Source: an uncultured Oscillospiraceae bacterium (GTDB lineage: Bacteria > Bacillota > Clostridia > Oscillospirales > Acutalibacteraceae). Taken from it: a DNA stretch of 64,000 nt. This document shows positions 3,065 to 28,478 of the stretch, piece after piece (the stretch's first letter is position 1; every line of letters begins with the position of its first letter). The DNA is taken from assembly GCA_959601025.1 (NCBI GenBank), contig CAUGOD010000002.1:6173-70172 (forward strand). The letters are read 5' to 3'. The notes beneath the pieces were generated by a model. The model saw only the letters and a program-made list of their open reading frames with translations, was not told the origin of the DNA and did not search any database. Position numbers and translations under genes: made by a program.

Positions 3065-3940
3065 CTATCGCCTGTTTTTTTCGCTTTGGCGGGCGGAGAG
3101 GTACCGGCTGGGAGAAACGCCGTAATAGCGGGAAAAGGCGCGGGAAAAGGTATGGATGGACTGGTATCCCAGCTGCTCGGCGGTTTCGGTCACGCTGACG
3201 CCGTTTTCCAGCAGGGAAACCGCCCGGCCGAACAGCCGCATCTGGAAATACTCCGAGATCGACATTCCCATCCGCCTGGAAAACAGCTGGGACAGATAGG
3301 CGTAGCTGTAGCCGAAGTCGTCGCCGATCCGGGACAGATGCTCCAGCCGCAGACCGGGAGAATCCAAGCGGCGGATGATCGCATACAGGGTATCCTCCGC
3401 CGAGCGGGGCGGGATGACGGGAGAATACCGCCGGTCTTCCTCCCGCCCCAGGAAACGCCGGTAGGATTTTACCACGAGCTCGGTCAGATAGGCGGCGATC
3501 ATGGGCAAACGGTATCCCGAATCCTGTTCCAGCTCGCTGAAGATGGAGAAAAAGAGGGCGGCGAGCTCGCCGCAGTCGGCGGTTATCCGTGTAGTGGCCG
3601 CGTCGAAAGCCTGCCGTACGGCGGTATACGATTGGTCCAGAAAGTCGAAGCCCACATACAGGTATCGTACGGGGTCGGCGTCGTCCGATTCGATGAAGTG
3701 GATATCCCCCGGACGGTTGAGTACGAGGTCGCCCGCCTGGACGGAAATCTCCGTTCCGCTGATACGGAACACCGAGTCTCCCGACAGAATCAGGGAAAGT
3801 TCATAGCAGTCCTGCTCGTGCTCCTCCACCGTGTGCCGGAGGCCACAGGAAAGATCCCCGATCTGGTGGAGAGAAAAGCTGCCGCAGAGCAGGGGGGAGG
3901 CGCAGAACTGGTTATCGTAATGAAAGCGCGCCTGTTCCAT
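3065..3940 (-). CDS. AraC family transcriptional regulator
   Basis: Cupin-like N-terminus plus C-terminal HTH (…YAYLSQLFSRRMGMSISEYFQMRLFGRAVSLL…GYQSIHTFSRAFSRYYGVSPSRY). Start MEQARFHY with AAGGAGG RBS 9 nt upstream. Confidence 0.8.
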   Translation of the reverse strand: MEQARFHYDNQFCASPLLCGSFSLHQIGDLSCGLRHTVEEHEQDCYELSLILSGDSVFRISGTEISVQAGDLVLNRPGDIHFIESDDADPVRYLYVGFDFLDQSYTAVRQAFDAATTRITADCGELAALFFSIFSELEQDSGYRLPMIAAYLTELVVKSYRRFLGREEDRRYSPVIPPRSAEDTLYAIIRRLDSPGLRLEHLSRIGDDFGYSYAYLSQLFSRRMGMSISEYFQMRLFGRAVSLLENGVSVTETAEQLGYQSIHTFSRAFSRYYGVSPSRYLSARQSEKNRR

Positions 3941-4033
3941 TGGTGCATCGCCTCCTTGGCGTCCGGCGGGGCGAAAAGGGACGCCCACGCGGATCCTGTA
4001 CCGGGCCGGCGCTTCCCGGCGGCCATTCTTCCG

Positions 4034-7000
4034 TTATTCCTTCTGTCCTTTCGACGGCTTGTTTACATGGACGATGATCGGCTGGGTGTAGCGGCGGTAA
4101 GGGCCGTAGGGAGAGCTGTTTTTATCGCACCGAAGGGCAGTAGACTGCTCGTACCACAGGAGGATGGCGCCATCGCCCGGCTCTTCCGCATACAGGCAAT
4201 TCCCCTCCGCACGGAGCCCGCCGCTCAGCACGGTGATCTGCGGGGAGACGAGGACGTCCGCCTGCGAGTAGGTGGTCATTACCGCCCGCAGCGGGCGGCT
4301 TTCCCCGACGCGGAGGTGAAGCTCCCCGCCGCCGGACCGGTCAAAGGACAGTTCCTTCATCCAGCCGCAGAAGGTGTGAACCTGATTGGTAAACAGCCCC
4401 GTCACGCCGGACAGGAAATACTCCCGGAAATCCATCCCGTTGTCAATGTAATACGTCCAGGAGGAAATGCCCCGGCACCACAGGTTATAAATAATATGGG
4501 AGAGGTTGGCGGAATGGTCATAGCGGGGGCTGAACTGGGTGGTGTGCAGCTGCAGGTTGGTCAGGATTTCGGAGAGGGAGAGGCGGCAGTCATGCCCGTA
4601 CAGACCGCGGGTAAAAACCGAGGCGCGGGGAATTTTCCGCCGGATGTGCTGTATCTGCGCGGTGCCGCCCACCACGTAGGAAACCCGATCCTCCATCCCG
4701 GCCTCTCGCGTCAGCTTTTCCAGCTGGTCGATGATCCGCTCCTCATCCTCGTAAACCACCAGAAACAGACGAAGGGACCGCGGGGCGAAAAAGCGGTAGA
4801 AGTCCTCCAGCAGGGCGGGATGGGTATCCAGGCATTCCAAATGCGGATTTTGATTATACCGGATTTTCCGAAGCTCCTCCCATGTATAATCCTCCACATT
4901 TCCCAATTTGTCAAGGGAGTGCCGTTCGATTTCCCGTTCCGGAAAGGCGATCAGCCGCCGATCCTTGGTAAAGAAAATATCCAGAATCGCAAATTCCGCG
5001 CCGCTGTCCTCGTACGCCGCGGCGGCCGCCTCCAGAGAATCCCAGGGATAGACCTGTTCATAGCCGTAGGAGATGACCCGCGGTGTGTGGAGCATTGTGC
5101 GGCCCCCATATTTTTCCACCGCCCCGGCCAGGCGTTCCGGATGATCCACCAGCAGTCCGGACGCGCCGCTGGTCAGCATACGGTGGTACCGGATATCCAG
5201 ATTCTCTTCCCCATGGAACTGCTGAAGCCAGACGGTGGTCTGCCGCAGCTGCAGCGCGGAGACGATGGAGCGGGGAGTATCCTCCGGCAGCATCAGGATG
5301 CGGATGTGGTTTTCGTTGCACAGCGCGTGCAGCTCGTCCGGAGAGGGAAGCTCATCCGTGAATTCCAGAATACCCCGCAGGCTGTAATACTGCTTATGGA
5401 CATGCCGGAGCAGGTCGGGCTTGGTGGACATCACGAAAACATCCTGAAAATTTTTCTCGTTCAGGTATCCCATCAGGGCGTCCACGGTTTCCTTATCCGA
5501 AACCGTGAATACCGGAAGAAGCTTCTGATAAATCTTTACAAACAGGCTGGAAAGCGTACCGAGAGGGGTTCCGGTCACACTGTACACGGTCAGGTTTTCA
5601 TGGAGCGCCAGCTGAACGCCTGTGGGATGCGAATCCCCCTGACAGAGACGGTTCAGCTCACTCTGGCTGCGGGGCCGGGCAATCACCGCCGGCGGCAGGA
5701 GGAAGGGGGACTCCGGCGGGGCGAATTCCAGCAGGTCGTTTTTGGAGGAGGACTCCGTCAGCATGGAGATGTCGGTATCGGTGAATTCCACATCGTCCAG
5801 AAACAGTCGCCCGATGGACGGCTTTTCCGTGTTGTTGATGCTGCGGAAAAAGAAATGCAGCCCCACGCCGGTGGTCAGCGATATCGTGTGGGTCTCGTCC
5901 TTGGGCACGAATTCGTCGAGCGGCAGACAGATGACCGCGCCGATGTTGCCGATGTCCACCGTTTTGGTGAACGTCTGCCACTGACTGTCCGTCAGGACAA
6001 TCTCTACTGTGACAAGGCTGGTGGCCTTCGCCCAGAAGGAAAGGTATTTCATCCCCTGGATGGAAAAATCCGGCCGGCGGCGCGCATAGCAGTCCACCCG
6101 CCAGTAGGAGGTAACGTTGAATTCCATTGCCAGAGAACGGGTGCCGCTGTGCCGGGGATAGGGTACCAGCTCAATGGTTTGCATGGAGCCATACACCCGG
6201 TCGGCCTCCCATTCCAGGCTGTCCCCCTCGAAATTGTCGAACACCCGGCGGAGAGGCTTTTGCCGGGTGACCTGCCGATCCTTCTGCTGGAAGCTGCCGG
6301 GGGAACGGCCGATCTGCCGGGTAAAGGCGCGGGAGAAGGAATGCACCGCCGCGTAGCCCAGCATATTGGAGACCTCGGTGATGCTCATATCGTCCTTGAG
6401 CAGCTCGATGGCCTTTTCAAACCGTTTGGTCAGGAAATAATCCCGCAGGGAGGTTCCGGTCGCTTCGGAAAAGGTGTGGGACAGGTAGGAATAGTTGTAG
6501 CCAAGCGCCTCGCTGATTTTGGAGACGTTCTTGAGATACAGGATGTTGGCGTCGATGTAGCGGATCACCTCGTCCACAACGCTTTCCCGGCCGCCGGCGG
6601 CGTGCGGCGCGGGCGCGGCTTCCCCCGCCCGGACGCAGCTGCGGTAAAAATAGATGAGAAGCAGCCGGAGCAGGAGCTCCAGCATGGACTCGTGAAACAC
6701 GTCCCCTGCGCGCAGTTCACCCGTCAGCGCGTTCCAGGCGCTGTAGGTATCGGCGCCGGTTTCCACGGGGGAGAGAAGGTAAAGGGGCAGGTTTTCCCGG
6801 ATAATCGCATCGTCCCCGATGGGGCGTCCGGATTCCTGGAAGGCGAACCGCACCTGAGAAAAGGACAGTCCGTTTTCAGCGTTCGGAACCAGCTCCACTC
6901 CGCTGTCTGAGAGGGCGAGAAAGGAGACGCCGCTTTTCAGCGGCTTCCGCTCGCCGGGAGCCCGCAGCTCCCCGCCGCCGGTGGCCACATAGAAAAGATC

Positions 7001-7147
7001 GTAGCTCTGCACCCGGTCGGCGGGAGGACGGTACGGTTTCCGGAGACGGCCGCTCCAAAGGCTGTGCAGGTGGAAAGCGGCGCCGACAGCCATGGGAGGG
7101 TGGAATTCTTTGGAAAAGATGAACGGATTTCTGTCTTTGGCAGGCAA
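4034..7147 (-). CDS. AraC-type regulator fused to a CBM-like beta-sandwich and a degenerate GDPD-like domain (1037 aa)
   Basis: Residues ~1-290 form an AraC cupin plus HTH (…YSYLSHTFSEATGTSLRDYFLTKRFEKAIELL…GYAAVHSFSRAFTRQIGRSPGSF). Then FDNFEGDSLEWEAD…YLSFWAKATSLVTVEIVL…FLDDVEFTD matches the module found in the secreted proteins at 9299 and 25385. The C-terminal region carries GDPD-like signatures (VISYGYEQVYPWDSLEAAAAAYEDSGAEFAILDIFFTKDRRLIAFPE … GVTGLFTNQ) with catalytic His/Asp positions substituted. TTG start with AAAAAGGAGGGG RBS. Confidence 0.75.
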   Translation of the reverse strand: MPAKDRNPFIFSKEFHPPMAVGAAFHLHSLWSGRLRKPYRPPADRVQSYDLFYVATGGGELRAPGERKPLKSGVSFLALSDSGVELVPNAENGLSFSQVRFAFQESGRPIGDDAIIRENLPLYLLSPVETGADTYSAWNALTGELRAGDVFHESMLELLLRLLLIYFYRSCVRAGEAAPAPHAAGGRESVVDEVIRYIDANILYLKNVSKISEALGYNYSYLSHTFSEATGTSLRDYFLTKRFEKAIELLKDDMSITEVSNMLGYAAVHSFSRAFTRQIGRSPGSFQQKDRQVTRQKPLRRVFDNFEGDSLEWEADRVYGSMQTIELVPYPRHSGTRSLAMEFNVTSYWRVDCYARRRPDFSIQGMKYLSFWAKATSLVTVEIVLTDSQWQTFTKTVDIGNIGAVICLPLDEFVPKDETHTISLTTGVGLHFFFRSINNTEKPSIGRLFLDDVEFTDTDISMLTESSSKNDLLEFAPPESPFLLPPAVIARPRSQSELNRLCQGDSHPTGVQLALHENLTVYSVTGTPLGTLSSLFVKIYQKLLPVFTVSDKETVDALMGYLNEKNFQDVFVMSTKPDLLRHVHKQYYSLRGILEFTDELPSPDELHALCNENHIRILMLPEDTPRSIVSALQLRQTTVWLQQFHGEENLDIRYHRMLTSGASGLLVDHPERLAGAVEKYGGRTMLHTPRVISYGYEQVYPWDSLEAAAAAYEDSGAEFAILDIFFTKDRRLIAFPEREIERHSLDKLGNVEDYTWEELRKIRYNQNPHLECLDTHPALLEDFYRFFAPRSLRLFLVVYEDEERIIDQLEKLTREAGMEDRVSYVVGGTAQIQHIRRKIPRASVFTRGLYGHDCRLSLSEILTNLQLHTTQFSPRYDHSANLSHIIYNLWCRGISSWTYYIDNGMDFREYFLSGVTGLFTNQVHTFCGWMKELSFDRSGGGELHLRVGESRPLRAVMTTYSQADVLVSPQITVLSGGLRAEGNCLYAEEPGDGAILLWYEQSTALRCDKNSSPYGPYRRYTQPIIVHVNKPSKGQKE

Positions 7148-7254
7148 ATTCAGCCCCTCCTTTTTCGTGCTTTCAGCGGATTTCCACCTTCATGGCCGCC
7201 TTTGTGGCCGCCTTTGTGGCCTCGTCTTAGGCTGACGGCTCTTCGCGCGCCGGG

Positions 7255-9216
7255 TCAGGCCAGTCCCTTTAGCTGCAGAGTGACCACGCCGTTTGAGGTG
7301 ATCTGGACGGTCAGGGCGCCGCTTGCTTCCTCCCAGGCGGTCTTGGCAACGGCGCTGTTGTTGCCCGCGACGGTGAGCTCCGGCCGGGCGGACAACCCTT
7401 CCAGCGTGATGGTGGTTGTGCGCAGGTCCTCCGGGCTGGTATCCCGGTTCCCTTCCAGATAATCGTCGATGAACATATCCCAGCGAATCTTTTTGTTCAG
7501 GAAATCCCGCGCGTCGTACCGGTAGTTGTAAAGCTCGATCTTCAGGGCGCCGCCGTCCTCATACAGCAGGGAATAGCTGTGTTCCGGCAGGTCGATCGCC
7601 ATTGTTTTCTGATTTTTCAGGGCAAAACGGGCGCTTTCATGCGCGTTGATGGTGGTGTTTTCATGGTTATTGAAGATAAGAGAGTAGTTTTCCATCGCAT
7701 ACATGGTCGCCGTGCCGGTGTAGGTTTCGGCGTATTTGCTGTTGAAGTACGCCTGCTTGGAGGCCGCATCGCTTCCCAGTAGGCTCTGGTAATTGCCGCT
7801 GTTCACGATGGCGGCGTCCGGCAGGACGGCGGAGGCGCTGACCTGCCGGAGCAGGGAGGGGACGATATAATACCGGCCGGTGGTGGGCAGCCATTTCTTG
7901 CTCACCCGCAGCTGGCGGTAGGTATTCATGTAGTCGAGGGTGGGACCGTACAGGTCGATCAGGAGGGGGGACTCATAGCCCGCGGTATCCTCGGCGTCAA
8001 TATCGCTGTACTGGTACGCCACCTTCACCTTGGATTTGACCTCGTCCCTGGTGGGGATCAGCCCGCCGGACACGATCTTCTGGTAAATGGGATACAGGAC
8101 GTTGTAGAAGGCCGGCGTCCACACGGTTTCGCCGTCCGCGTTGACGGCCGTCATGGTCAGGTCCTCAAAGGAATACACCGTCGCGCCCCCGACCGTGTCG
8201 TTCAGAGTGTCGATCCCCGCCATGGCGGCGGGATACTGCTTGATCAGGTCTTCCGACTCGCTGCGGAAGGTGCCGCCCATGTCGTCGTACTGACCGAAGC
8301 CCTCTTCCCACCAGAGCCAGCTTTCCACATTGGAGCCCCAGTTGCCGCACACGCCGGAGAGCCAGCAGCCCATCGCCGCGCTCTGGACGGCGAAATGGCG
8401 GCCCTGTCCGTTGTGCTTATCCACCAGGACGACGTTGTGGGCATAGGAGGACATCAGGCTGTACAGCTCCTCGTCCTCCAGAAAGCGAGCGAATACGTTG
8501 GTATTCTGGACGTATTCCATGTCGAGCCAGATGAAAAGCGCGTTGTTTTCCTTGCAGGCCCGCAGCGTGTTTTTGATGCGCTTGCTTTCCTCTTCCTCCG
8601 AATACATACAGCTCAGCTCGGTGTGGGCGTATCCCTTGAGGGAGGCGTGACGCTTCAGCAGGCCGGAGAGCTGCTCCTGCGTGAACATTTCCCGCTCGGA
8701 ATAGCTGTTCCAGTGCTCGACTTGCAGGACGACGGGAATATTCTGCGCATCGGCGACCGTTAATAGGTCATCGAAGTATTGTACCACGGTATCGTTGTCC
8801 TTAGTCGCGTCGTAGGAGGTCAGAATGGCGGAATACGCCCGGACGTCCTCCGGAAGCATCTTCCAGAGCTTGACGACCCCCTCCGCTTTTTCGGGAGTGG
8901 AGCTGCGAAAAAGAAAAAGGGGATTTTCCGTGTTGACCACCAGGCGGGTATTGCTGTCGGTCGCCCGGACCCCGGCGGACACGGGGGAAACGGCCGTCAT
9001 ATCCAGGGGGGCAACCGTTATGCCGTCGCCGTCGATCGAGGCGGGCGGAACGCCCTCCGACGCGGAGGAGGGGGGCGTGGAGGAGGGGGTGGAAGCGACG
9101 CTGCCGTCGGATCCTGCGGAGGAAGCATCCTCCGGAGAAGGGACGCAGCCGCTGAGCAGGGAGAGGGACAGCGCGCCTGCCAGCAGGAGGGATCGTATAG
9201 TACGCGGCGTTTTCAT
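7255..9216 (-). CDS. lipoprotein, putative TIM-barrel glycoside-hydrolase-like protein (family not assignable by eye); paralog of 23413..25038
   Basis: Start MKTPRTIRSLLLAGALSLSLLSGC (lipobox LSGC) with RBS AAAGGTG. Shares motifs with the 23413 protein (MGCWLSGVCGNWGSNVESWLWWEEGFG vs MGYWLTGLSPAWGINVEDFWWYEQGY; FIWLDMEYV vs YLLWEDMGY). The track ORF extends 69 codons upstream without a stop (high GC). Confidence 0.65.
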   Translation of the reverse strand: MKTPRTIRSLLLAGALSLSLLSGCVPSPEDASSAGSDGSVASTPSSTPPSSASEGVPPASIDGDGITVAPLDMTAVSPVSAGVRATDSNTRLVVNTENPLFLFRSSTPEKAEGVVKLWKMLPEDVRAYSAILTSYDATKDNDTVVQYFDDLLTVADAQNIPVVLQVEHWNSYSEREMFTQEQLSGLLKRHASLKGYAHTELSCMYSEEEESKRIKNTLRACKENNALFIWLDMEYVQNTNVFARFLEDEELYSLMSSYAHNVVLVDKHNGQGRHFAVQSAAMGCWLSGVCGNWGSNVESWLWWEEGFGQYDDMGGTFRSESEDLIKQYPAAMAGIDTLNDTVGGATVYSFEDLTMTAVNADGETVWTPAFYNVLYPIYQKIVSGGLIPTRDEVKSKVKVAYQYSDIDAEDTAGYESPLLIDLYGPTLDYMNTYRQLRVSKKWLPTTGRYYIVPSLLRQVSASAVLPDAAIVNSGNYQSLLGSDAASKQAYFNSKYAETYTGTATMYAMENYSLIFNNHENTTINAHESARFALKNQKTMAIDLPEHSYSLLYEDGGALKIELYNYRYDARDFLNKKIRWDMFIDDYLEGNRDTSPEDLRTTTITLEGLSARPELTVAGNNSAVAKTAWEEASGALTVQITSNGVVTLQLKGLA

Positions 9217-9298
9217 CCGCTTTTCACACCTTTCTTGTGAAGCGGCCGGCCGCAGGCATACGGATACGCGCGGCCGGCCGGATGAGGGCTTATGGTAT

Positions 9299-10264
9299 TT
9301 ACTGCTCTTTATCGGAAGGATCGCTGTCCGCCGGCGGCTCATCCGAAGCGTCGGGAGCAGGCGCTTTCTTTTTGCGGTACAGGACGAAGCCGACGATGCC
9401 GCCGACGATCGCCAGCACCACAATGGTCCCGATTACGCCGCCCAGCACATACAGCCCCGCGTTGGCGGCGGGTGCGGGTTCCGTCGGCTGGGTGGACGGC
9501 GCGGTGGTGTTCGGGTTGGTTGACTCCGACGCCTTGGCGTCGGACGTGCTGGGCGTGTCGGAGCCGGAGGGGGCGGCCGCCGTGGTCGTGGTGGGTTTCT
9601 TTGTGGTGGTGGGGGCATGCTTCATAGCCTCGGCTTCGGTGCTGAGGTCGGTCGGGTCGTCGCCCTGGAAGAAGTAAATATTATCATACCACACCGACCC
9701 GGTCCGCTGGAAGGCCTTCGGCTGATCTTCGCCGAAAATCACTGTGGAAAACCCGCTGAAATAGGCGGCGGAGAAAAAGTCGAAGGTTTCATCCTCCACC
9801 CCGACCAGATCCTCAAAGCGAATGGTGTATTCACGGGGCTCCGGAGAAGCGTAGATAAACATATGGCCGCTGACGTAGTCAAAAGAGGGGCTGCAGCGGA
9901 TGGCCATCGGGCAGGTGGCTTTTACCGTGAACTTGATGCCGTCGCAGTTGCTCGGCAGCGCTTCGCTGAAATGCTCCTGATCCGGGTAGTGGATGATGGT
10001 GGCCCAGCCGGGCTTTACGTTGAGGTTATAGTCGGTGCGCAGGGAGTTTTTCCCTTCCAGAACGCTGTTTGTGTCCAGCTCCAGGGAGACGGCGTCGCAG
10101 GCCCGCTGCGCGCCCCAATAAAGGATGAAATCGGAGGTTTCGTTATAGCTTTCGAAATCCTCCTGCATCTTGAACACGGTGGAGCTGGCGGACACATTGG
10201 CCGTCAGTCCCAGGGAGAGCAGAAGCGCGGCGAGAAGGGATACGGCTTTTTTCGCGTATTTCAT
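9299..10264 (-). CDS. type-I membrane-anchored protein with CBM-like beta-sandwich module and Thr/Pro-rich stalk
   Basis: Signal peptide MKYAKKAVSLLAALLLSLGLTANVSA and perfect AAGGAG RBS. Domain FESYNETSDF…GKNSLRTDY…IKFTVKA…VWYDNIYFF. Linker TTTKKPTTTTAAAPSGSDTPSTS…, then TM helix LYVLGGVIGTIVVLAIVGGIVGFVLY and a basic/acidic cytoplasmic tail. Confidence 0.7.
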   Translation of the reverse strand: MKYAKKAVSLLAALLLSLGLTANVSASSTVFKMQEDFESYNETSDFILYWGAQRACDAVSLELDTNSVLEGKNSLRTDYNLNVKPGWATIIHYPDQEHFSEALPSNCDGIKFTVKATCPMAIRCSPSFDYVSGHMFIYASPEPREYTIRFEDLVGVEDETFDFFSAAYFSGFSTVIFGEDQPKAFQRTGSVWYDNIYFFQGDDPTDLSTEAEAMKHAPTTTKKPTTTTAAAPSGSDTPSTSDAKASESTNPNTTAPSTQPTEPAPAANAGLYVLGGVIGTIVVLAIVGGIVGFVLYRKKKAPAPDASDEPPADSDPSDKEQ

Positions 10265-13736: not shown

Positions 13737-16268
13737 TCAGCTCCTTTCGCTTATGTATTGCTGGGCCGGGATGGTGCGGCCGTCCGCCAGCGTCACATCG
13801 AAACGGTTGTAGTTGATGAGAATACGGGTTCCGCCCGCGTAGGTGGTCCGGACGACGCCCTCCGCCAGCCGTTCATGGCCGGTAATGGGCTGTCCCCAGC
13901 AGCCGTCCAGGGCTTCGGAAAGCCAGGCGTAGTCGTCGGCGATTTTCTGCTCGAGGTAGCGGTACTGGATGGCGTAGAAATCGCTGAAATCGGTGTTTCG
14001 CAGCTCTTCCGCGTTTTCGGCGCAGAGGAGGTAATAGGGGGCCGCGCCGTTTTCCAGCAGCCGGAGATAATCGTTCCGGTCGGCAAAATCCAGATTGATC
14101 CGCCCGCCGGTATACCGTACATAGCCGCTGAGCACCATGGCGGCAAAGGGAACGCTGTAGTCGGTGACGTCGTAATTGCTGGAGCTCAGCGGCAGGGACA
14201 GGAGAGAATCCGCCTGTACGGCGAAGGGGGCGATGCCGGTGGAAAGGATCAGGTTGTCGGTCGATTCCCGCAGCGCGGCAACCTGTTCCTCCAGCCGGAT
14301 CAGGGAGGTCTGCCGCTCCACCTCCCGTTTTTCGTTGTAGTCGCTGTTGACCTCCCGTCCGACGCTCCGCAGGGAAAGGCCGGTCAGTCCGGTATCCCTG
14401 AGCAGCCCGGACAGGGAAGCAAAGCCGGTCTCAATCCCCGCGGAATTCAGGATATAGGCGGGCAGCGCTTCGGCGTCGGCGCCGAAATAGGCGCGGTCGG
14501 CGGGGTAATACGCCCCCTGCTTCCGGCTGAGAAGCCGGGCGATCTGCCGGTTTCCCAGCCCGTCGAACAGCCCTTTGTCGTACGCATACTGTATTTCGGC
14601 GTCCAGCGCGTAGGAGACGCCCTTTTCCGTGAGGTAGCCGGCCAGCTCGGTCAGGCCCTTTTTTCCGCCCAGCCGGCCGGAGACCTCCGCCTTGTTGAGA
14701 TAGCCCTGCCGGTAACCGCCGTTCAGGCAGCCGCTCAGAATGATCTGGAGATTCCCTATGCCCTTGCCGAGCAGGCTGTCGACCAGCGCGCGGCCGTCCT
14801 CAAAGGAGGTGAGGATGAGCTGACGGCGGACGTTGAAACCCAGCACGTTTTTCTGGATGTCGGCTTCCCCCAGAAGGTTAACGTACAGCGGCAGGCCGCC
14901 CTCGTCATCCAGAGGGGCGCGGCCGCCCAGCAGCAGCTCCCGGTACAGCCCGGCCATCCCGTTGTAGGAGGCGTCCTCCCCGGTCAGGAAGTGGTAGGCC
15001 ACCCGGAATTCGCCGTCATAGCCTTCGGCCTGGTGGGTGACGAAATAGGAATCGGTGTTTTCCGTGGTGGACAGGGTGGCGATCTTCGCCTGCTGCAGAA
15101 CCGTGAAGGAAGCGCAGACCGAGGGAGGAACCGTATCGTCCCCGGGGGAGGCGTTCACCGTTGCCAGCGCGTCCCCGTCCTCGATCACCGCCAAATAGCC
15201 GTTGCCGTTATCCAGCGCGCAGCCGAAAATCGGAAAGATCGCCGTCTGGTCCCGGAAGGTGGTCTCGCCGGCGGCGATGGAACGGTCGGCGCCGTAGATT
15301 CCCACCGCGTACTCCTGCAGGTTGTTTTTCCCGTTGTAAAAGTTCATGATCGAGCCGGAGCCGTCCGGCAGCAGGAAATACCCGTCGGTTTCCCGGTCCG
15401 CCCGGCCGAAGTTGGGAAGGAGGCGGAGGGTTTCCAGCGGGAACTCCTCCGTCCAGGCGATTTCCTCGCAGGGAACGCGCACCCGCAGGGCGTCGCCCTC
15501 CAGCTCCAGGTAGAGGGAAACGCTGAACTGCGGCTCGGAGGCGGCGGCGAGCTCGCCGTTTTCCGCGTCGAGCGTCCGGTCCGCCTCGGTGTAGCCGGCG
15601 TTTCGCAGCGCGCTGTCCAGCTTGACTTTCACGCTCTTCTGCATGTTGGGGGTGAGGACATAGATGGGGCCGTCCTCCGCCAGCGGATATTCGGCGGCGG
15701 TCTTTTTTCGTTCCTCCCCCTCGTAATTGTTCAGGTCGATTTTGGAATACAGCTGCCGCATAAACCGCTGGTCGCCGGATTCCATCGCATCGTAAAATTT
15801 GAGGTAGCGCTCCTCGGTCAGAATAGCCGGCGCAAAGTACTGGGGTTCGATCTCCCCGAGGGAATACCGGAGCTTTACGCCGTTATCCAGCGGAATGATC
15901 TCATACTGTCCTTTTTTCACCGAATCGGTGTAGGAATTCATATACTGCGCCACACTGCCGGTCGCCATATAGGCCAGGGTAAAGGCCGCGTTATAGGAAT
16001 CCTGCTCGCCGTTTCCCGTTGTGGAGGACCAGACCCGCCCGGTCTCCTTGACCGTGACCCGGAAAGCGGTGGTATCCGGGTTTACCTCCAGCATGAGCGC
16101 GTCGGTTTCCGCCATTTTCTGAAAGTCGGGGGAAGCGACGTCGTTTTCCCTGGTTCCCTCAGCGATCAGGTCCAGCTCCCGCGGCGCCGCGGCCGTGCCC
16201 GAACAGCCGGTCAGCAGCAGGCCAGCGCAGAGCAGCAGGACCAGAGAAAGTGTCCCGAACCTTTTCAT
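13737..16268 (-). CDS. large lipoprotein (843 aa) of unknown function; paralog of 61773..>64000 (resembles proteins I recall as DUF5696, unverified)
   Basis: Start MKRFGTLSLVLLLCAGLLLTGCSG (lipobox) with RBS GGGAGAAAGG. Shares blocks with the cluster B paralog (YFLLPDGSGSIMNF vs YFLVPDGSGALIEF; FPIFG vs PVFGMKKG). Lies 25 nt downstream of the NHL/Yip1 gene. Confidence 0.7.
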   Translation of the reverse strand: MKRFGTLSLVLLLCAGLLLTGCSGTAAAPRELDLIAEGTRENDVASPDFQKMAETDALMLEVNPDTTAFRVTVKETGRVWSSTTGNGEQDSYNAAFTLAYMATGSVAQYMNSYTDSVKKGQYEIIPLDNGVKLRYSLGEIEPQYFAPAILTEERYLKFYDAMESGDQRFMRQLYSKIDLNNYEGEERKKTAAEYPLAEDGPIYVLTPNMQKSVKVKLDSALRNAGYTEADRTLDAENGELAAASEPQFSVSLYLELEGDALRVRVPCEEIAWTEEFPLETLRLLPNFGRADRETDGYFLLPDGSGSIMNFYNGKNNLQEYAVGIYGADRSIAAGETTFRDQTAIFPIFGCALDNGNGYLAVIEDGDALATVNASPGDDTVPPSVCASFTVLQQAKIATLSTTENTDSYFVTHQAEGYDGEFRVAYHFLTGEDASYNGMAGLYRELLLGGRAPLDDEGGLPLYVNLLGEADIQKNVLGFNVRRQLILTSFEDGRALVDSLLGKGIGNLQIILSGCLNGGYRQGYLNKAEVSGRLGGKKGLTELAGYLTEKGVSYALDAEIQYAYDKGLFDGLGNRQIARLLSRKQGAYYPADRAYFGADAEALPAYILNSAGIETGFASLSGLLRDTGLTGLSLRSVGREVNSDYNEKREVERQTSLIRLEEQVAALRESTDNLILSTGIAPFAVQADSLLSLPLSSSNYDVTDYSVPFAAMVLSGYVRYTGGRINLDFADRNDYLRLLENGAAPYYLLCAENAEELRNTDFSDFYAIQYRYLEQKIADDYAWLSEALDGCWGQPITGHERLAEGVVRTTYAGGTRILINYNRFDVTLADGRTIPAQQYISERS

Positions 16269-16293
16269 ACCGTCATCCTTTCTCCCGTCTTGC

Positions 16294-18426
16294 TTACAGG
16301 CGCATGGAAATTTCCGTTTGCAGGTCGCTGATGAAGGAAACAAACTGATTGGCCAGCGCAAAGGCCAGCACCGCCAAAAACAGGACGATCACCATCACCA
16401 GCAGGGTGATGAGAATGACCAGCAGGGTCTTCCCCATCGTGTAATCGTGAATCTGCCGGTTGGCGCAGATGACCAGCGCGATCGTCCAGCAGAAGGCCAG
16501 CGTCACCAGGAAGAGGAAGAAGTCGCCTTCGTCCTCCACCAGCACGTTGCTGAACAGGGTGGCGATCGGAAGAAGGATCACCAGCGGGGTCAGCGCGTAG
16601 GAGGAGGCCATAAAGATATCCCGGAAGCTCCCTTCGCCGTTCATCAGGGAGGTGACGCACCAGTTGCAGGCGCAGAACAGAAGCAGCGGGCCGGCCACCT
16701 TCATCGCTTCCAGCAGAAGGTTCACCTCGTCCGCGCTGGAGGAGCCGAAGGGGAAGCCGATGAACCGGCTGTAAACCGCCATAGCCGCGCAGGCCAGGGC
16801 GAGCAGCGTGACCGCCGCCTTCATGCTCCCCCGTTTCTCGCATTTCAGGTCCCAAAACCCGTCGAAGGGGTGGAAGATGACATACCGGGAATACCGGAGG
16901 GTACCGCGGTAGCTGTCGGCGGCGACCGGCCGAGCGGGATGGCGCTTCCGCCATCGGGAGAATACGAACCCGACCGCGCAGAGGACGACAAGCCCGGTCA
17001 TCACATAGGGGAAAACGTCCCCCATGGTTTCCATCCGGACCATTTTGAAGGCGGAAGAATAGTTGGAGCGGTCCTCCGCCAGCCGGAAATAGCGCAGGGC
17101 CTCCGAAAAGTTCTTGTTCCGGTAAGCGGCCTTTCCCAGCCCGCTGAGGGCGCTCGCGCTGTTGATATTCTGCCGGGCGATTTCCGCCCACAGCGCCGCC
17201 TCCTCATCGTACAGGCTCTGGTAGTGGCAGCGGGCGGTATCGTACAGCTTCTGCCCGTAATCACTCATGGCGTAGACCGTCAGGCTCATCTTGCCGGAAT
17301 CCAGCACATAGAACCGCCCGTCCCGGTATTCCAGGGCGGTGGGAACCTGCAGGCCGCCCTTGACGCTGCCCGGCGAGCCGAATTCAAACAGCAGCTCCCC
17401 GTCGGCGTTGTATACGAAGGCGCGGCACCGGTTGGAATCCAGCACGGCGTACATGCCGTATCCCATGGTGCACACATCCACCAGCGAGGACGCGCCGCGG
17501 TAGGAGCCGGTCGCCATCACCTTGGGGTCGCCGTACGGCTTGACCGCGCCGGTCGTCCGCAGAATATCGTTTCCCTTGGCGTTCAGCTTCCGTACAGGGC
17601 TGGCGGTTCCCGCCGAATATTCGGCGGGGGTGTAGCTGTTGCTGGTGACATAGATGAAATCGTCCTCGTCGATGTTGATATTGTTGTACTCCGTCGGGAC
17701 GAAGGAGGCCATCCGTTCGATCATCTCGTCGGTGGAGATCATCCGCAGGAAATAATCCCACGGGGTCACGGTCACGGCGTTTGCGCCGAGGCAGCCGACG
17801 AAATCGCCGTTTTTATCCATCTCGATCAGGCCCATGTTGAAGCCGGAGGAGGTGACAAAAATCCGCCCGGCCGTGTCCACCAGCACCTTGGTGGGCTTAT
17901 AGTCAAAGGTATCCGGCAGCGAGCTGGATTCCGGCGCGGCCAGAATACGGAGCAGCCGGTCTTCCCGGTCAAGCACCACGATCCGGGCGTTGTTGGTGTC
18001 CGCCACATAGATGCCGGTTTCGTGGATATAGATGCCCTGCGGCTTCTGAAAGGTGAGGGCTTCCTCCCCGTTCGAAACCGAAGCGATTTCCCGCACGAAT
18101 CTCCATTCCCGATCCACGATCACGATACGGTTGTTGTCGGTATCGACGATATAGATGTCGCCGTTTTCATCCACAAAGAGGTCGGAGGGATTCGCCAGGT
18201 TGGCCGTCCCCAGGGCGACGCCGGTCAGCACCACGTCCGCCGTCACGGCGTCCGGGGCGGCGACCACATTGCCGTCGTTGTCGTAGGTGTAGCTGTAGAA
18301 GGCCCCTTCCGCCGCGGCGGGCAGCGCAGCCGGCAGCAGGAAAAGAGCGGCGAGAAGAGAGGTAAGAGAGGTAAACAGTCCAATCAAGGGGGCTTTTCGT
18401 TTCAATCCAATTCCCTCCGCCCGCAT
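16294..18426 (-). CDS. NHL-repeat beta-propeller / TPR-like / Yip1-domain multipass membrane protein
   Basis: Signal peptide …LLAALFLLPAALPAAAEG. NHL-type repeats (DIYIVDTDNNRIVIVD, GIYVADTNNARIVVLD, GRFYVLDSGKMSLTVY). Helical region (…YFRLAEDRSNYSSAFK). C-terminal ~250 aa with 5+ TM helices typical of Yip1/DUF1282 proteins. Its ATG overlaps the upstream permease stop as TAATG (18424-18428); an alternative TTG at codon 8 has a GGAGGGA RBS. Confidence 0.75.
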   Translation of the reverse strand: MRAEGIGLKRKAPLIGLFTSLTSLLAALFLLPAALPAAAEGAFYSYTYDNDGNVVAAPDAVTADVVLTGVALGTANLANPSDLFVDENGDIYIVDTDNNRIVIVDREWRFVREIASVSNGEEALTFQKPQGIYIHETGIYVADTNNARIVVLDREDRLLRILAAPESSSLPDTFDYKPTKVLVDTAGRIFVTSSGFNMGLIEMDKNGDFVGCLGANAVTVTPWDYFLRMISTDEMIERMASFVPTEYNNINIDEDDFIYVTSNSYTPAEYSAGTASPVRKLNAKGNDILRTTGAVKPYGDPKVMATGSYRGASSLVDVCTMGYGMYAVLDSNRCRAFVYNADGELLFEFGSPGSVKGGLQVPTALEYRDGRFYVLDSGKMSLTVYAMSDYGQKLYDTARCHYQSLYDEEAALWAEIARQNINSASALSGLGKAAYRNKNFSEALRYFRLAEDRSNYSSAFKMVRMETMGDVFPYVMTGLVVLCAVGFVFSRWRKRHPARPVAADSYRGTLRYSRYVIFHPFDGFWDLKCEKRGSMKAAVTLLALACAAMAVYSRFIGFPFGSSSADEVNLLLEAMKVAGPLLLFCACNWCVTSLMNGEGSFRDIFMASSYALTPLVILLPIATLFSNVLVEDEGDFFLFLVTLAFCWTIALVICANRQIHDYTMGKTLLVILITLLVMVIVLFLAVLAFALANQFVSFISDLQTEISMRL

Positions 18427-25038: not shown

Positions 25039-25384
25039 GCGGCGTTCCCCTCTGTCCTTGAAAATAGGTGGCTCCGCCCCGGTCGGACGACACGGCTGCG
25101 GACTTTGCAGGCTGGAATTCCTTGTCAGAATTGCACTTAAAACATGTATTGGTTTGGTTCCTTTTGTATTGTAGCACAACAGGAAATGTTGGTATATCAC
25201 GGAACATGCGGTATGAGTAACAAAACGTGCTGTATTTGGTATGCAAATACTGGATGGTAAAAAGAGGGAGAGCGACCGGCGGCTCCCGTTTGCTCCGGGA
25301 CCGCTGACCGCCCTCCCTCTGTTGGCAGAAACTGTCGGCTGAAAGGTAAAAAAGTGAAGGTTCAGGATGAAAGGGATAAAGGGG
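25039..25384 (-). promoter_or_regulatory. AT-rich upstream region of cluster A (putative promoter/operator region)
   Basis: Local GC drop (…tgtattggtttggttccttttgtattgtagcacaacaggaaatgttggtatatcacggaacatgcggtatgagtaacaaaacgtgctgtatttggtatgcaaatactgg…) immediately upstream of the first gene of an ~18-kb co-directional array. Confidence 0.35.
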
Positions 25385-27901
25385 TTATTTCTTTTTCCTG
25401 CGCAGGGCCAGCAGGGTAACGCCGGCGGTCAGCAGCAGGGCCGCGGGGATTATCCGGACAGCCTCGCCGGTGTTCACCTGTCCGCCGCCCTCTCCGTCCA
25501 GAGTACGGGGCTCGGAACTAAACACGACCGAATCGACGTAGATGGTGCCCTTCCAGGCCTTGGTACTCTTATAATCCTCGGCGTTGAGCTGGAATTCCAC
25601 GCCGCGGGCCATCGCTTTTTCATAGGAGGAGATATCCACGTTGTACATGTGGGCGCCTTTTTTGATGCTGACCAGCTGGTACCAGCTCTCTCCCCAGTCG
25701 GGATCGCCCAGAATCACCCGCAGGACGCAGTCCACGTCGGAGTTCATCCAGAAGGAGAGGTAATTGGTGTCCTCGTTCAGGTAGAACCAGTCGTCATAGG
25801 AGGCGGGCTCCATCACCCACTGTGTTTTTGTCCAGTCGCCCTCCATGTTCACCATCATCTTCAGGCTCCGCTTTCCGCTGTATACGGGAGAGGTAACCAG
25901 ATCGAAATGCTTGCCCTGCTTCATATAGGGACCGACCTTCGGGGTGAGTTCCCCTTCCTCAAAATCGGTGATCGGCAGGATCACGACGGCGGGCTTGGTG
26001 GTTTCGGTCGCGGAGGGAGCGGTGGGCACGACCGGCTCCTCGCCCGGCAGGGCGCGGGGGGTATCGGTCAGGACGACCGAATCCATATACCCGAAGCCGG
26101 AGAAGGGCTTGGGCGCGGCGGCGTAGTATTCGCCCTTCAGCTGAATCAGAAGGCGGGAGAAACCGCGGAAGGCGGAGTCCGAAACGTCGATGTTGTACAT
26201 ATGCGTACCCGCCTTGATGGAAAGGTCATAGTATTCGTCGCCGTTCCAGTCGATATCGGCCAGCTGCAGCTTCGCCGTGCAGTCCACGTCGGAGCTCATC
26301 CAGAAGGAAAGGTACAGCTTGTCGCTGTCCGGAAAAACCGTGGCCTTGTCGATCATATAGGTGATGGTGGTGTATTGGTTCTCGTATTTCAGGGGCAGCT
26401 TCATGCTCTTGGAACCCTCAAACTTCAGATCGGACGCGGTTTCCACAGTAAGGCTGCCGTCCGTCGGCCAGCTGACTACGAACAGCGGGTCGCCGTCTTC
26501 AAAGCCGGTGATCGGGACGACCAGCGCTTCCGGCTCGGTGGGTTCGGTCTGGCTGGGCTGCGTGCTCTCGGAGGGCACGGTGGATTCCGTCGAGGGGGTG
26601 GTGGGCTGGTCGGCCGTTCCGCGCGGGGTGTCGGTGACGATTACGGAATCCAGATAGACATAGCCCGAATACGGGGCCTGCTCCGGAATGTTCCCGGACT
26701 TGCCGCCGTTGCTCCAGTTGTTGATCATGACGCCGCGGACGCCGGCAAAGGGGCAGTCGGAGATATCCACGTTGTACAGGCGCGCGCCCTGCTGGATGTT
26801 GACGATGTAGTATTTATCGCCGTTCCAGTTGCTGTCGCAGAGCTGGATTTCCACCGCGGCGTCCACTTCGGAATCCGCCCAGAAAGAGAGGTATTTCTTC
26901 GCCATGCCTTCGGGGAAGGTCACGGTGCTGCCGATTGCATAGGTGATTGTACTCCACTGGTTCTGGCTTTCGAGCTTCAGCTTCAGGCTGCCGGCGCCCT
27001 CGTATTTCGGGCTGGATGCGGCTTCCACGGTAACGCTGCCGTCATCGGGATAGTTTACCTTGATCTGTCCGGCATCCTCACAATCCGCGATCACGACGCT
27101 TTTGGCGCCGGTCTGCGTGGGCTCCGTGGTCGGTGTGGTTTCGGAGGAGGTCGTCTCCGTCGGCTGGGCGGACTGCGTGGCTTCGCTTGTCTGGGAGCTG
27201 GAAGAGCTTGCTGTGCTTGCCGTAGTGGCTTCCGTCGTGGTGGTTACGGCCGCTTCGCTGGTGGAGGTGGTCGTCTCGCTGGGAAGTTCGCGCGGGATGT
27301 CGGTGACGATTACGGAATCCAGATAGACATAGCCCGAATACGGGGCCTGCTCCGGAATGTTCCCGGACTTGCCGCCGTTGCTCCAGTTGTTGATCATGAC
27401 GCCGCGGACGCCGGCAAAGGGGCAGTCGGAGATATCCACGTTGTACAGGCGCGCGCCCTGCTGGATGTTGACGATGTAGTATTTATCGCCGTTCCAGTTG
27501 CTGTCGCAGAGCTGGATTTCCACCGCGGCGTCCACTTCGGAATCCGCCCAGAAAGAGAGGTATTTCTTCGCCATGCCTTCGGGGAAGGTCACGGTGCTGC
27601 CGATTGCATAGGTGATTGTACTCCACTGGTTCTGGCTTTCGAGCTTCAGCTTCAGGCTGCCGGCGCCCTCGTATTTCGGGCTGGATGCGGCTTCCACGGC
27701 AACGCTGCCGTCATCGGGATAGTTTACCTTGATCTGCCCGGCATCCTCACAATCCGCGATTACGACGCTTTTGGCGCTGGTCTGCGAGCCGTCGCCGAGC
27801 GCGGAAAACGCCGGCAGGGCGGTAACGGCAAACGAGAAAACGGCGCTGATCGCCAGTACGGCTTTCACCAGTTTGCGGGGCTTTTTTTCCAGTTTATCCA
27901 T
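25385..27901 (-). CDS. secreted membrane-anchored protein (838 aa) with four CBM-like beta-sandwich modules (two identical) separated by Thr/Ser/Pro/Glu linkers
   Basis: Start MDKLEKKPRKLVKAVLAISAVFSFAVTALPAFSA with RBS GGAAGGAG. Modules of ~160 aa (…YLSFWADSEVDAAVEIQLCDSNWNGDKYY…YVYLDSVIVTD). C-terminus …GQVNTGEAVRIIPAALLLTAGVTLLALRRKKK (hydrophobic anchor plus basic tail). The 25367..27931(+) track ORF is a Gly/Arg-rich antisense artefact. Confidence 0.75.
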   Translation of the reverse strand: MDKLEKKPRKLVKAVLAISAVFSFAVTALPAFSALGDGSQTSAKSVVIADCEDAGQIKVNYPDDGSVAVEAASSPKYEGAGSLKLKLESQNQWSTITYAIGSTVTFPEGMAKKYLSFWADSEVDAAVEIQLCDSNWNGDKYYIVNIQQGARLYNVDISDCPFAGVRGVMINNWSNGGKSGNIPEQAPYSGYVYLDSVIVTDIPRELPSETTTSTSEAAVTTTTEATTASTASSSSSQTSEATQSAQPTETTSSETTPTTEPTQTGAKSVVIADCEDAGQIKVNYPDDGSVTVEAASSPKYEGAGSLKLKLESQNQWSTITYAIGSTVTFPEGMAKKYLSFWADSEVDAAVEIQLCDSNWNGDKYYIVNIQQGARLYNVDISDCPFAGVRGVMINNWSNGGKSGNIPEQAPYSGYVYLDSVIVTDTPRGTADQPTTPSTESTVPSESTQPSQTEPTEPEALVVPITGFEDGDPLFVVSWPTDGSLTVETASDLKFEGSKSMKLPLKYENQYTTITYMIDKATVFPDSDKLYLSFWMSSDVDCTAKLQLADIDWNGDEYYDLSIKAGTHMYNIDVSDSAFRGFSRLLIQLKGEYYAAAPKPFSGFGYMDSVVLTDTPRALPGEEPVVPTAPSATETTKPAVVILPITDFEEGELTPKVGPYMKQGKHFDLVTSPVYSGKRSLKMMVNMEGDWTKTQWVMEPASYDDWFYLNEDTNYLSFWMNSDVDCVLRVILGDPDWGESWYQLVSIKKGAHMYNVDISSYEKAMARGVEFQLNAEDYKSTKAWKGTIYVDSVVFSSEPRTLDGEGGGQVNTGEAVRIIPAALLLTAGVTLLALRRKKK
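26627..27110. repeat. intragenic direct repeat, copy 1 (~480 bp)
   Basis: Near-identical to 27296..27790, offset 669 bp (223 codons, in frame). Only a handful of mismatches near the 3' end. Encodes the duplicated CBM-like module. Confidence 0.85.
27296..27790. repeat. intragenic direct repeat, copy 2 (~480 bp)
   Basis: See copy 1. Sequence identity read directly by comparing 26631-27110 with 27300-27780. Confidence 0.85.
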
Positions 27902-28478
27902 CCTTCGTACTCCTTCCTGTTCATCCCTTGAATAATATAAAGAGTTAAGCAAGCGGGAAGGACAGGGACGCGGCCCGTTCTCCCGTCCGGCGTCTCCGTT
28001 ATCCGCCCGACAGGATCCTTCCAGTGTCTTCAATATAGCACGAACGGAGAAAAGCGTCTTTGACAGATTGTGCGGTTCGGCGCTCCAAACATGCTTTTTT
28101 GGGGAATTAATTCAAAAATTATCCAATAAATTGATGGTCTGTTATTCAGCATTCCGCCTTTTTCGATTGTCCAAGGCGGAAAAGCGAGGCGATTTGCTCA
28201 AAGGACGCGCTGGCGGTGGGAGCCGCCAGACAGCCCGCCGAAATTTCCGGCATGGCCTCCCGCGCCCGCTGCAGTTGGGTGAGGTTGAGGGAAATGAGGG
28301 ATACCTGATCCGCTACCTCATACTCATCGATCCGCTCCCTGGGCTTTTCAATGATCGCCGCCTGACCGCTACAGCCTATATATAGCACGGATGGAGAGAA
28401 CCGTCTTTGCCAAAACATGCTGTTGTTTATGTAAATTAAGCGAAATATATGATACTTCTTGGCGAATCCTTTGATTTC

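Follow-up and report, generated by a model that had tools for sequence, protein, structure and literature searches.

An AraC-type regulator joined to an inactivated, secreted-type glycerophosphodiesterase ectodomain in a glycan-utilisation region of an uncultured Oscillospiraceae bacterium

The minus strand of a 64-kb stretch of contig CAUGOD010000002.1 (assembly GCA_959601025.1, an uncultured Oscillospiraceae bacterium of the gut; the whole stretch is referred to below as the window) carries a gene for a 1037-residue transcription regulator that poses a curious question: what is a complete AraC-type protein doing with a further 740 amino acids (aa) of the kind otherwise found outside the cell? 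Our comparisons indicate that this entire C-terminal part is built like the members of a large secreted family of glycerophosphodiester phosphodiesterases (GDPD), that its catalytic barrel has been stripped of its active site, and that the fused protein has been maintained by selection since a single fusion event. We propose that the former ectodomain probably now serves the regulator as a binding module. The gene and its parts are as follows.

4034..7147, minus strand: whole gene for the 1037-aa AraC-ectodomain fusion regulator, an open reading frame (ORF) with a TTG start at 7147 and its stop codon at 4034-4036.
7156..7162, minus strand: Shine-Dalgarno sequence AAGGAGG, 8 nt ahead of the TTG start at 7147.
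6617..7126, minus strand: AraC-type cupin and helical linker, aa 8-177, the classical AraC sensor and dimerisation module, from hhalign and cupin structure matches.
6275..6592, minus strand: AraC/XylS double helix-turn-helix (HTH) DNA-binding domain, aa 186-291 (PF12833, PF00165).
5762..6250, minus strand: module with a beta-jelly-roll like that of carbohydrate-binding module (CBM) family 11, aa 300-462 (motifs WRVD.Y, KYLSFWAKAT and VEI.L.DS).
5096..5695, minus strand: domain X, a degenerate GDPD-type beta/alpha barrel without the catalytic N-terminal motifs, aa 485-684, from hhalign and the structural model.
4358..5086, minus strand: GDPD-fold TIM barrel, aa 688-930, with its active site destroyed as judged from the catalytic columns.
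4058..4357, minus strand: all-beta immunoglobulin (Ig)-like domain, aa 931-1030, with beta-strands at a predicted local distance difference test (pLDDT) score above 90.

The strong ribosome-binding site and TTG start of the original prediction, which was made from the sequence alone, hold: both the AGGAGG-spacer-TTG layout and the N-terminal peptide are retained in an ortholog of 86% identity (locus L009), and the N-termini of more distant homologs align at the same TTG. Antisense to the gene runs a 1274-aa ORF (window 3086-6910, plus strand) with a Gly/Arg/Pro/Ala-rich translation, which is best read as a shadow ORF of the kind typical of 60% GC DNA.

The first 290 residues, already taken for a standard AraC protein, contain a cupin, a linker and a double HTH and thus make up a complete AraC regulator. 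HTH_18 (PF12833) matches at E=1.7e-17 with 63.9 bits against a Pfam gathering threshold (GA) of 33.6, and HTH_AraC (PF00165) matches two stretches at E=2.2e-10 with 40.8 bits against 26.6. Pfam's AraC_binding model finds no match in the regulator; the cupin was recognised instead by hhalign, which aligns it and the linker with the canonical AraC protein encoded at 3065..3988 (95%, E=3.7e-8, 161 columns), and by matches of aa 8-177 to cupin structures in the PDB (E about 4e-6). Its beta-strands also appear, at pLDDT about 80, in a first, full-length AlphaFold2 model built from six sequences, which at an overall pLDDT of 52 was not used for fold assignment. On these sequence and profile matches the regulator is assigned to the AraC/XylS family.

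The fold of the remainder comes from an AlphaFold model of aa 295-1037, built on a 52-sequence alignment (mean pLDDT 89.3, predicted template modelling score, pTM, 0.79), which resolves four domains. Where the original prediction placed a single GDPD-like region of some 450 residues behind the beta-sandwich, the GDPD likeness stands, but the region is really two barrels (485-684 and 688-930), and the Ig-like domain at 931-1030 had been overlooked. Domain X consists of alternating beta and alpha elements at pLDDT above 90 and matches the C-terminal two-thirds of the GDPD barrel (hhalign 96.2%, E=2.6e-9, 146 columns). The second barrel has the TIM-barrel fold of the GDPD family, but its Pfam match (PF03009; aa 695-786, profile positions 3-94 of 244) reaches 22.1 bits against a GA of 23.6, and the catalytic His and the metal-binding Glu are absent; we therefore regard it as a GDPD-derived pseudoenzyme. 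The beta-sandwich has the jelly-roll fold of CBM11 and is nearest to bona fide carbohydrate-binding modules. Since it shares 15% identity with 1v0a, and since none of the Pfam CBM models matches the regulator at E<=1, it is CBM11-like by fold only and not a member of CBM11. Seven of its residues (W313, W349, R350, D352, Y354, W372 and K374) are invariant across fused proteins that are 30-35% identical to the target. Among the Pfam families that had been named for this protein, HTH_18 is thus found and GDPD falls short of its threshold, and neither AraC_binding nor a CBM family is detected.

A Kyte-Doolittle scan of the regulator finds neither a signal peptide nor a transmembrane (TM) segment, as had been claimed; the peak over 19 residues is 1.36 for the target and does not exceed 1.68 for homologs (inside beta-strands). 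With no TM segment and a hydrophilic N-terminus, the regulator is predicted to be cytoplasmic. HisKA, HATPase and receiver domains have no Pfam match in it, and we therefore describe it as a one-component regulator, a single predicted cytoplasmic polypeptide without phosphotransfer domains, in which the C-terminal part would act as the input domain. The TM segment between sensor and output that characterises regulators of the RsgI type and the hybrid two-component system (HTCS) type is absent.

Where, then, do the 740 residues come from? An exhaustive HMMER search of cluster representatives with a profile of aa 295-1037 matched 1426 of them, of which 674 fall at E<=1e-10 and 220 at E<=1e-30. 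The match is in nearly all cases one stretch over profile positions about 175-730, which corresponds to domain X, the GDPD barrel and the Ig-like domain (the X-GDPD-Ig unit); domain X occurs together with GDPD in all secreted relatives, and the Ig-like domain is aligned up to position 730 in nearly all family members. Among the best 150 of the 1426, an AraC HTH is present in only two, the target's cluster representative (P0002) and P0008, while a hydropathy heuristic assigns a signal-peptide-like N-terminus to at least 122 of the other 148, several of the rest being fragments. Ten sampled secreted members have full-length GDPD domains (93-151 bits), often with a DUF1080/3-keto-disaccharide-hydrolase beta-sandwich ahead of them and in one case with Big_6 Ig domains behind, and public annotation calls the secreted members 'glycerophosphodiester phosphodiesterase family protein'. 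To judge from these architectures, the X-GDPD-Ig unit is a hallmark of a large secreted GDPD family. In P0051, a member of this family, a signal peptide and the same 'YLSFW' beta-sandwich in duplicate precede the X-GDPD-Ig unit, and a membrane anchor sits at the C-terminus; its alignment with the target runs without a gap in coverage from the beta-sandwich through to the end of the chain (690 columns, E=4e-48). Because the unit is typical of the secreted family, we take the entire C-terminal 740 aa to be a relocated ectodomain. The original prediction had seen a borrowed extracellular CBM-type fold; the module is indeed of that type, but what was borrowed extends to the whole secreted-enzyme architecture.

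The relocated barrel no longer has the means of its relatives. Placed in a common register of the hidden Markov model (HMM), the 148 secreted relatives and the target compare as follows at the catalytic positions.

Position 694, first His: His in 140/148 secreted relatives (HRG register allowed); Y694 in the target.
Position 702, Glu of the PEN(T) motif: Glu in 139/148; W702 in the target.
Position 703, Asn of PEN(T): Asn in 147/148; D703 in the target.
Position 721, Glu of the ExD motif: Glu in 148/148; I721 in the target.
Position 723, Asp of ExD: Asp in 148/148; D723 in the target, the sole residue kept.
Position 736, His of the HD motif: His in 141/148; P736 in the target.
Position 737, Asp of HD: Asp in 126/148; E737 in the target.
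Position 797, Glu of the IEIK motif: Glu in 138/148; V797 in the target.
Position 799, Lys of IEIK: Lys in 145/148; Y799 in the target.

A secreted consensus of H/E/N/E/D/H/D/E/K, conserved at 85-100%, is thus replaced by Y/W/D/I/D/P/E/V/Y, which bears out the suspicion that the catalytic positions had been substituted. Counted as catalytic or metal-binding positions, 6 of 8 are replaced in this barrel, and the catalytic residues of the secreted relatives are conserved at 93-100%. The target lacks the two histidines that act as general acid and base and retains one of three metal carboxylates, which excludes canonical GDPD chemistry. Within its close clade several of the replacements are themselves invariant (Y694, G695, W702, E737, V797 and Y799, beside the retained D723). 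Further afield, P0008, an AraC-fused protein of 1020 aa with the same end-to-end architecture and 30% identity to the target, has Y-E-N-V-E-Y-D-D-I at these positions, and the AraC-fused regulator of locus L008 (1010 aa, 34% identity over 1031 columns), which is built alike, has Q-E-N-S-D-Q-F-K-K. On their aligned residues, the three deep branches of the fused clade have each been inactivated in a different way.

These branches share one origin. Neighbour-joining trees of the shared unit, built from 59 taxa and 521 columns after removal of the catalytic columns, set the eight AraC-fused proteins apart as an exclusive bipartition in 100/100 bootstraps. It follows that there was a single fusion, after which the lineages moved far apart; in 97/100 bootstraps the L008 regulator joins the target clade. 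P0051 was considered as direct sister or donor of the fused clade and rejected, with 0/100 bootstraps. A codon comparison of the target with its 86% ortholog in L009, at a synonymous divergence (dS) of about 0.5, gave the following ratios of nonsynonymous to synonymous divergence (dN/dS).

Whole gene: 0.139
HTH: 0.027
X barrel: 0.111
Pseudo-GDPD barrel: 0.119
Ig-like domain: 0.173
CBM11-like module: 0.183
Cupin: 0.187

These values show purifying selection on every domain: the dead enzyme is being maintained and is not decaying. The fused family is rare, comprising eight sequence clusters and a handful of gut metagenome-assembled genomes (MAGs); a scan of metagenome contigs returned mostly generic AraC genes, with the protein of locus L010 as the sole further fused member. 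A word-indexed protein search with an eight-member profile recovered the close clade only, missing both P0008 and the L008 regulator, and since it was swamped by AraC HTH matches its yield cannot be read as the size of the family.

A module that has lost catalysis while remaining as a whole under purifying selection is most likely a non-catalytic binding, or sensor, module. On balance we favour a model in which the protein is a cytoplasmic one-component AraC regulator whose former ectodomain binds an imported glycan fragment and thereby adjusts how the AraC part acts on promoters in the neighbouring cluster, and we consider this model to be somewhat better than an even proposition. In this model, a complete AraC regulator (cupin and double HTH) would have been fused once to the ectodomain of a secreted, glycan-directed glycerophosphodiesterase, acquiring its CBM11-like module, a GDPD-type barrel that was degenerate by then, a second GDPD barrel that was still catalytic, and the Ig-like domain, although not the signal peptide. 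The catalytic barrel would then, after fusion, have lost its two general acid/base histidines and most of its metal ligands. The adjacent ABC (ATP-binding cassette) transporters would import a glycan fragment, which the C-terminal module would bind without turning it over, and occupancy would alter DNA binding or activation by the AraC part, whether as activator or repressor, at the promoters of the GH98/DUF5696/ABC cluster. As the last member of that cluster, the regulator would itself be autoregulated.

The surroundings of the gene fit this proposal. The window is a Gram-positive glycan-utilisation region with two GH98-type genes, a DUF5696 gene, an NHL/Yip1 membrane protein, two ABC transporter sets and a four-CBM surface protein; a reading of the locus as a defence system was rejected, there being no PADLOC match. 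The genes that matter here are the following.

7255..9423, minus strand: GH98 lipoprotein gene, upstream of the regulator, co-directional and its conserved neighbour (PF08306 E=1.3e-30, PF08307 E=1.2e-16); its true start is probably near 9216 (MKTPRTIRSLL...).
3065..3988, minus strand: canonical 307-aa AraC protein (cupin and HTH), 45 bp downstream of the fusion gene (AraC_binding E=2.8e-14, HTH_18 E=1.7e-18).
13737-16361, minus strand: DUF5696 gene (protein score 501 bits).
16294-18426, minus strand: NHL-repeat/Yip1 gene.
23413-25200, minus strand: second, divergent GH98-like gene (41 bits).
25385..28033, minus strand: 882-aa secreted, C-terminally anchored protein with four CBM11-like modules, from BLASTP, HMM and its translation.

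The GH98 gene adjoins the regulator in three other loci as well (L001, L002 and L009), and in these the order NHL/Yip1, DUF5696, permease, permease, substrate-binding protein, unknown, GH98, regulator is kept at 54-86% identity, the unknown slot being taken by one or two unannotated genes of about 300 aa. The regulator stands last and co-directional in this order in every relative compared, and the genes beyond it differ. As no terminator-like site lies between GH98 and the regulator, co-transcription and autoregulation appear likely. The 45-bp gap to the AraC gene at 3065..3988 likewise contains no terminator-like site on the minus strand, and that gene is possibly co-transcribed too. Between the GH98 stop and the regulator's ribosome-binding site there is a perfect 12-bp tandem repeat of 2.4 copies (window 7193-7221, GGCCACAAAGGC on the gene strand), which is absent from the 86% ortholog in L009 and is probably incidental.

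The P0008 gene comes after a GH16 gene. In L008 the regulator (minus strand) diverges from the gene for secreted P0051 (plus strand) at a distance of 231 bp, and P0051 has a near-intact active site and the same architecture as the regulator's C-terminal part; such divergent pairing is a classical regulator-target layout. The AT-rich intergenic region between the two (L008 9770-10000) contains ATCAAATT twice with a 21-bp period, a spacing typical of AraC-family half-sites, overlapping a TCAAATTTTGA palindrome. No counterpart of this ATCAAATT-N13-ATCAAATT pair is present in the window. Together with the purifying selection on every domain, both the conserved synteny with a glycan-utilisation cluster and the pairing of a sister regulator with its active secreted counterpart make the sensor role of the C-terminal part more plausible.

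Within the window the beta-sandwich family occurs in one other protein, that of 25385..28033, whose translation displays a signal peptide and a TM tail. The target's module matches its four repeats at 1e-9, 4e-9, 1e-5 and 0.013 by BLASTP and at 6e-22 by HMM, so that the kinship claimed for it in the original prediction stands, while the same claim for the ORF at 9299..10264 was rejected (E=1.3, no HMM match). With that relationship unsupported, the GDPD region resolved into tandem barrels and an Ig domain, and the borrowing extended to a whole ectodomain, the earlier interpretation is upheld in part, its reading of the anatomy having been correct. The 882-aa protein has Ser/Thr/Pro linkers between its modules, the first two of which, with their linkers, result from a recent 669-bp tandem duplication (repeats 26570-26869 and 27239-27538; 93% DNA identity over at least 300 nt, with nearly identical protein sequence). 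It ends in a hydrophobic segment followed by RRKKK, without LPXTG, and the tail of P0051 is similar. In the 445-bp region upstream of its gene, the direct repeat GATCCGCTACCT / GATCCGCTCCCT with 22-bp spacing (window 28307-28340) is a short candidate AraC-type operator. A second canonical AraC protein (cupin and HTH) is encoded by minus-strand positions 28479-29321. The locus then has three AraC-type regulators within about 26 kb, so that regulation probably proceeds in layers and operators are harder to assign.

A wider reading, which we put forward tentatively and consider doubtful, is that the same glycan-recognition hardware operates on both sides of the membrane: CBM11-like modules and a GDPD-type barrel at the surface would capture or process a host- or diet-derived, possibly phosphodiester-decorated glycan, and the dead AraC-fused copy would read the imported fragment.

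Several points weigh against the sensor model. An HMM search found no other X-GDPD-Ig gene in the 64-kb window, which also lacks any GDPD-type enzyme or obvious phosphodiester-related gene, and this leaves no evident connection between a pocket of GDPD descent and a substrate of the GH98 type. No operator motif was identified: the intergenic repeats of the window are short or weak, and three AraC genes share the locus. The count of signal peptides among the secreted relatives depends on hydropathy. Finally, the regulator has in its N-terminal cupin another potential effector site, and the sensor may therefore not be the C-terminal 740 aa, or not these alone.

This last point leads to the best of the alternatives, in which the cupin is the true effector site and the former ectodomain is a scaffold for protein-protein interaction or oligomerisation, for example in higher-order assembly and DNA looping or in docking to the ABC transporter or another cytoplasmic protein. 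With its complete cupin and linker the AraC part is in principle self-sufficient, Ig-like and beta-sandwich domains often mediate protein contacts, and the C-terminal unit has been kept as a single rigid piece (pTM 0.79). However, the beta-sandwich is closest to carbohydrate-binding modules and keeps aromatic and charged residues invariant at 30-35% identity, and constraint is tighter on the barrels (dN/dS 0.11-0.12) than on the cupin (0.19), which makes a scaffold unlikely, though it remains the strongest competitor to a sensor.

The constraint on the barrel might alternatively reflect a trigger enzyme, that is, a bifunctional protein whose remodelled barrel has gained a new catalytic activity on an imported metabolite and couples turnover to regulation. 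The invariance of the substituted positions in the close clade would fit such a role, as would the new acidic clusters PEREIE (736-741) and YEDEE (799-803). The disappearance of the two acid/base histidines, and of all but one of three metal-binding carboxylates, speaks against it, and the difference between branches (YWDIDPEVY, YENVEYDDI and QENSDQFKK) agrees better with relaxed catalytic constraint than with one new conserved chemistry; we judge this explanation improbable.

Slightly less credible again is the idea that the C-terminal region has no influence on transcription, being a cytoplasmic module that binds or sequesters glycan, or simply an evolutionary leftover. The rarity of the family would be in keeping with a passenger, but the fusion has stayed intact down to 30-35% identity in three branches, under purifying selection everywhere, and a useless appendage of 740 aa would not be expected to persist for so long.

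That the fusion is an assembly chimera, or a sequencing frameshift that joins two genes, can be dismissed as vanishingly improbable, for although the orthologous gene of MAG UMGS1487 (L005 9851-13112) lies in two overlapping ORFs of 798 and 312 aa, the architecture is uninterrupted in the window, in nine loci (L001-L004, L006, L007, L008, L009 and L010) and in six protein clusters, and codon-level purifying selection spans all domain junctions. These six clusters (1012-1037 aa, 53-100% identity, 111 member sequences) align end to end without a break, and among the nine loci the regulator gene itself is uninterrupted in seven (L001-L004, L006, L009 and L010); in all, about 10 independent assemblies have it intact, the full-length homologs sharing 53-86% identity and belonging to uncultured human-gut Ruminococcaceae MAGs. 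A frameshift splitting the protein into separate genes, which would have undone the original prediction, is thereby excluded for the family at large; the L005 split may stem from a frameshift in assembly or sequencing, or the gene may truly be a pseudogene there.

The regulation of glycan foraging is far less understood in gut Firmicutes than in Bacteroides, and here the evolutionary source of a putative sensor can be identified as a family of secreted enzymes that has members with intact sites, including one divergently placed beside a sister regulator. This source offers a handle on the ligand that induces a GH98/DUF5696 cluster, so far uncharacterised, of uncultured Ruminococcaceae. The clade also presents a natural case of pseudoenzyme birth, with one fusion, three ways of dismantling one active site and a fold under selection, and suggests that CBM and Ig-like modules considered extracellular can find a new use in the cytoplasm. 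From an annotation pipeline the protein would receive the label 'AraC family' or 'GDPD' only, and both the relationship and the lost activity would be missed. On the wider, doubtful reading given above, the regulator would be the founding example of entire secreted ectodomains of the carbohydrate-active enzyme (CAZyme) type (CBM, enzyme barrel and Ig) turned into cytoplasmic transcription-factor sensors, and the specificity of such regulators could be predicted from their secreted paralogs.

How does this arrangement compare with known systems? Classical AraC/XylS sugar regulators (AraC, RhaS/RhaR, MelR) have the same N-terminal cupin and double HTH and are likewise encoded with sugar-utilisation genes, but they end after the HTH at about 290 aa, where the target adds 740 residues in four domains. 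The secreted tandem-barrel GDPD proteins of Firmicutes (Paenibacillus WP_076314718.1, Pseudobacteroides WP_331918615.1, and P0051 in L008) share the contiguous unit of X barrel, GDPD barrel and Ig-like domain, and P0051 also has a CBM11-like module upstream of it; unlike the target, they have signal peptides, in some cases C-terminal anchors, retained catalytic residues and no DNA-binding domain. Btr of Bacillus subtilis reportedly joins an AraC-type HTH to a siderophore-binding domain resembling a substrate-binding protein. The logic is alike, with an extracytoplasmic-type binding fold C-terminal to the HTH serving as a cytoplasmic sensor for an imported ligand, but the sensor fold is unrelated, Btr is not known to have enzyme ancestry or a cupin, and in the target the NCBIfam Btr model reaches no further than the HTH. 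AraC-GATase1-like regulators (FtrA, GbdR) combine an AraC HTH with an inactivated enzyme fold as sensor, and the long staphylococcal proteins Rsp and AryK combine it with a large non-canonical domain. All four resemble the target in this joining, yet differ in folds, domain order and ancestry, and again their NCBIfam models align with its HTH only.

Other parallels place the sensor outside the cytoplasm. In the RsgI anti-sigma-I factors of Clostridium thermocellum, CBM, PA14 and GH-like modules are polysaccharide sensors that control CAZyme expression (PMC10328401, PMC6852018). The reuse of CAZyme modules as sensors in Clostridia is common to both, although RsgI senses outside the cell and signals across the membrane by proteolysis and sigma factor release, whereas the target has no TM segment and a direct AraC HTH output. 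In the polysaccharide utilisation loci of Bacteroides, HTCS proteins link the sensing of glycan fragments to output by an AraC-type HTH (PMC3404733), but do so through a periplasmic sensor, TM helices and a histidine kinase/receiver phosphorelay, none of which the target possesses. Our search of the full-text literature found no description of an AraC-GDPD fusion, of pseudoenzyme AraC sensors or of DUF5696, and the fused proteins are unnamed in all sources checked. Taken together, these comparisons describe a one-component regulator with a putative pseudoenzyme sensor that follows a known logic, and that differs from Btr, the other enzyme-derived sensors, RsgI and the HTCS in its fold, in its topology, which includes no membrane step, and in its ancestry.

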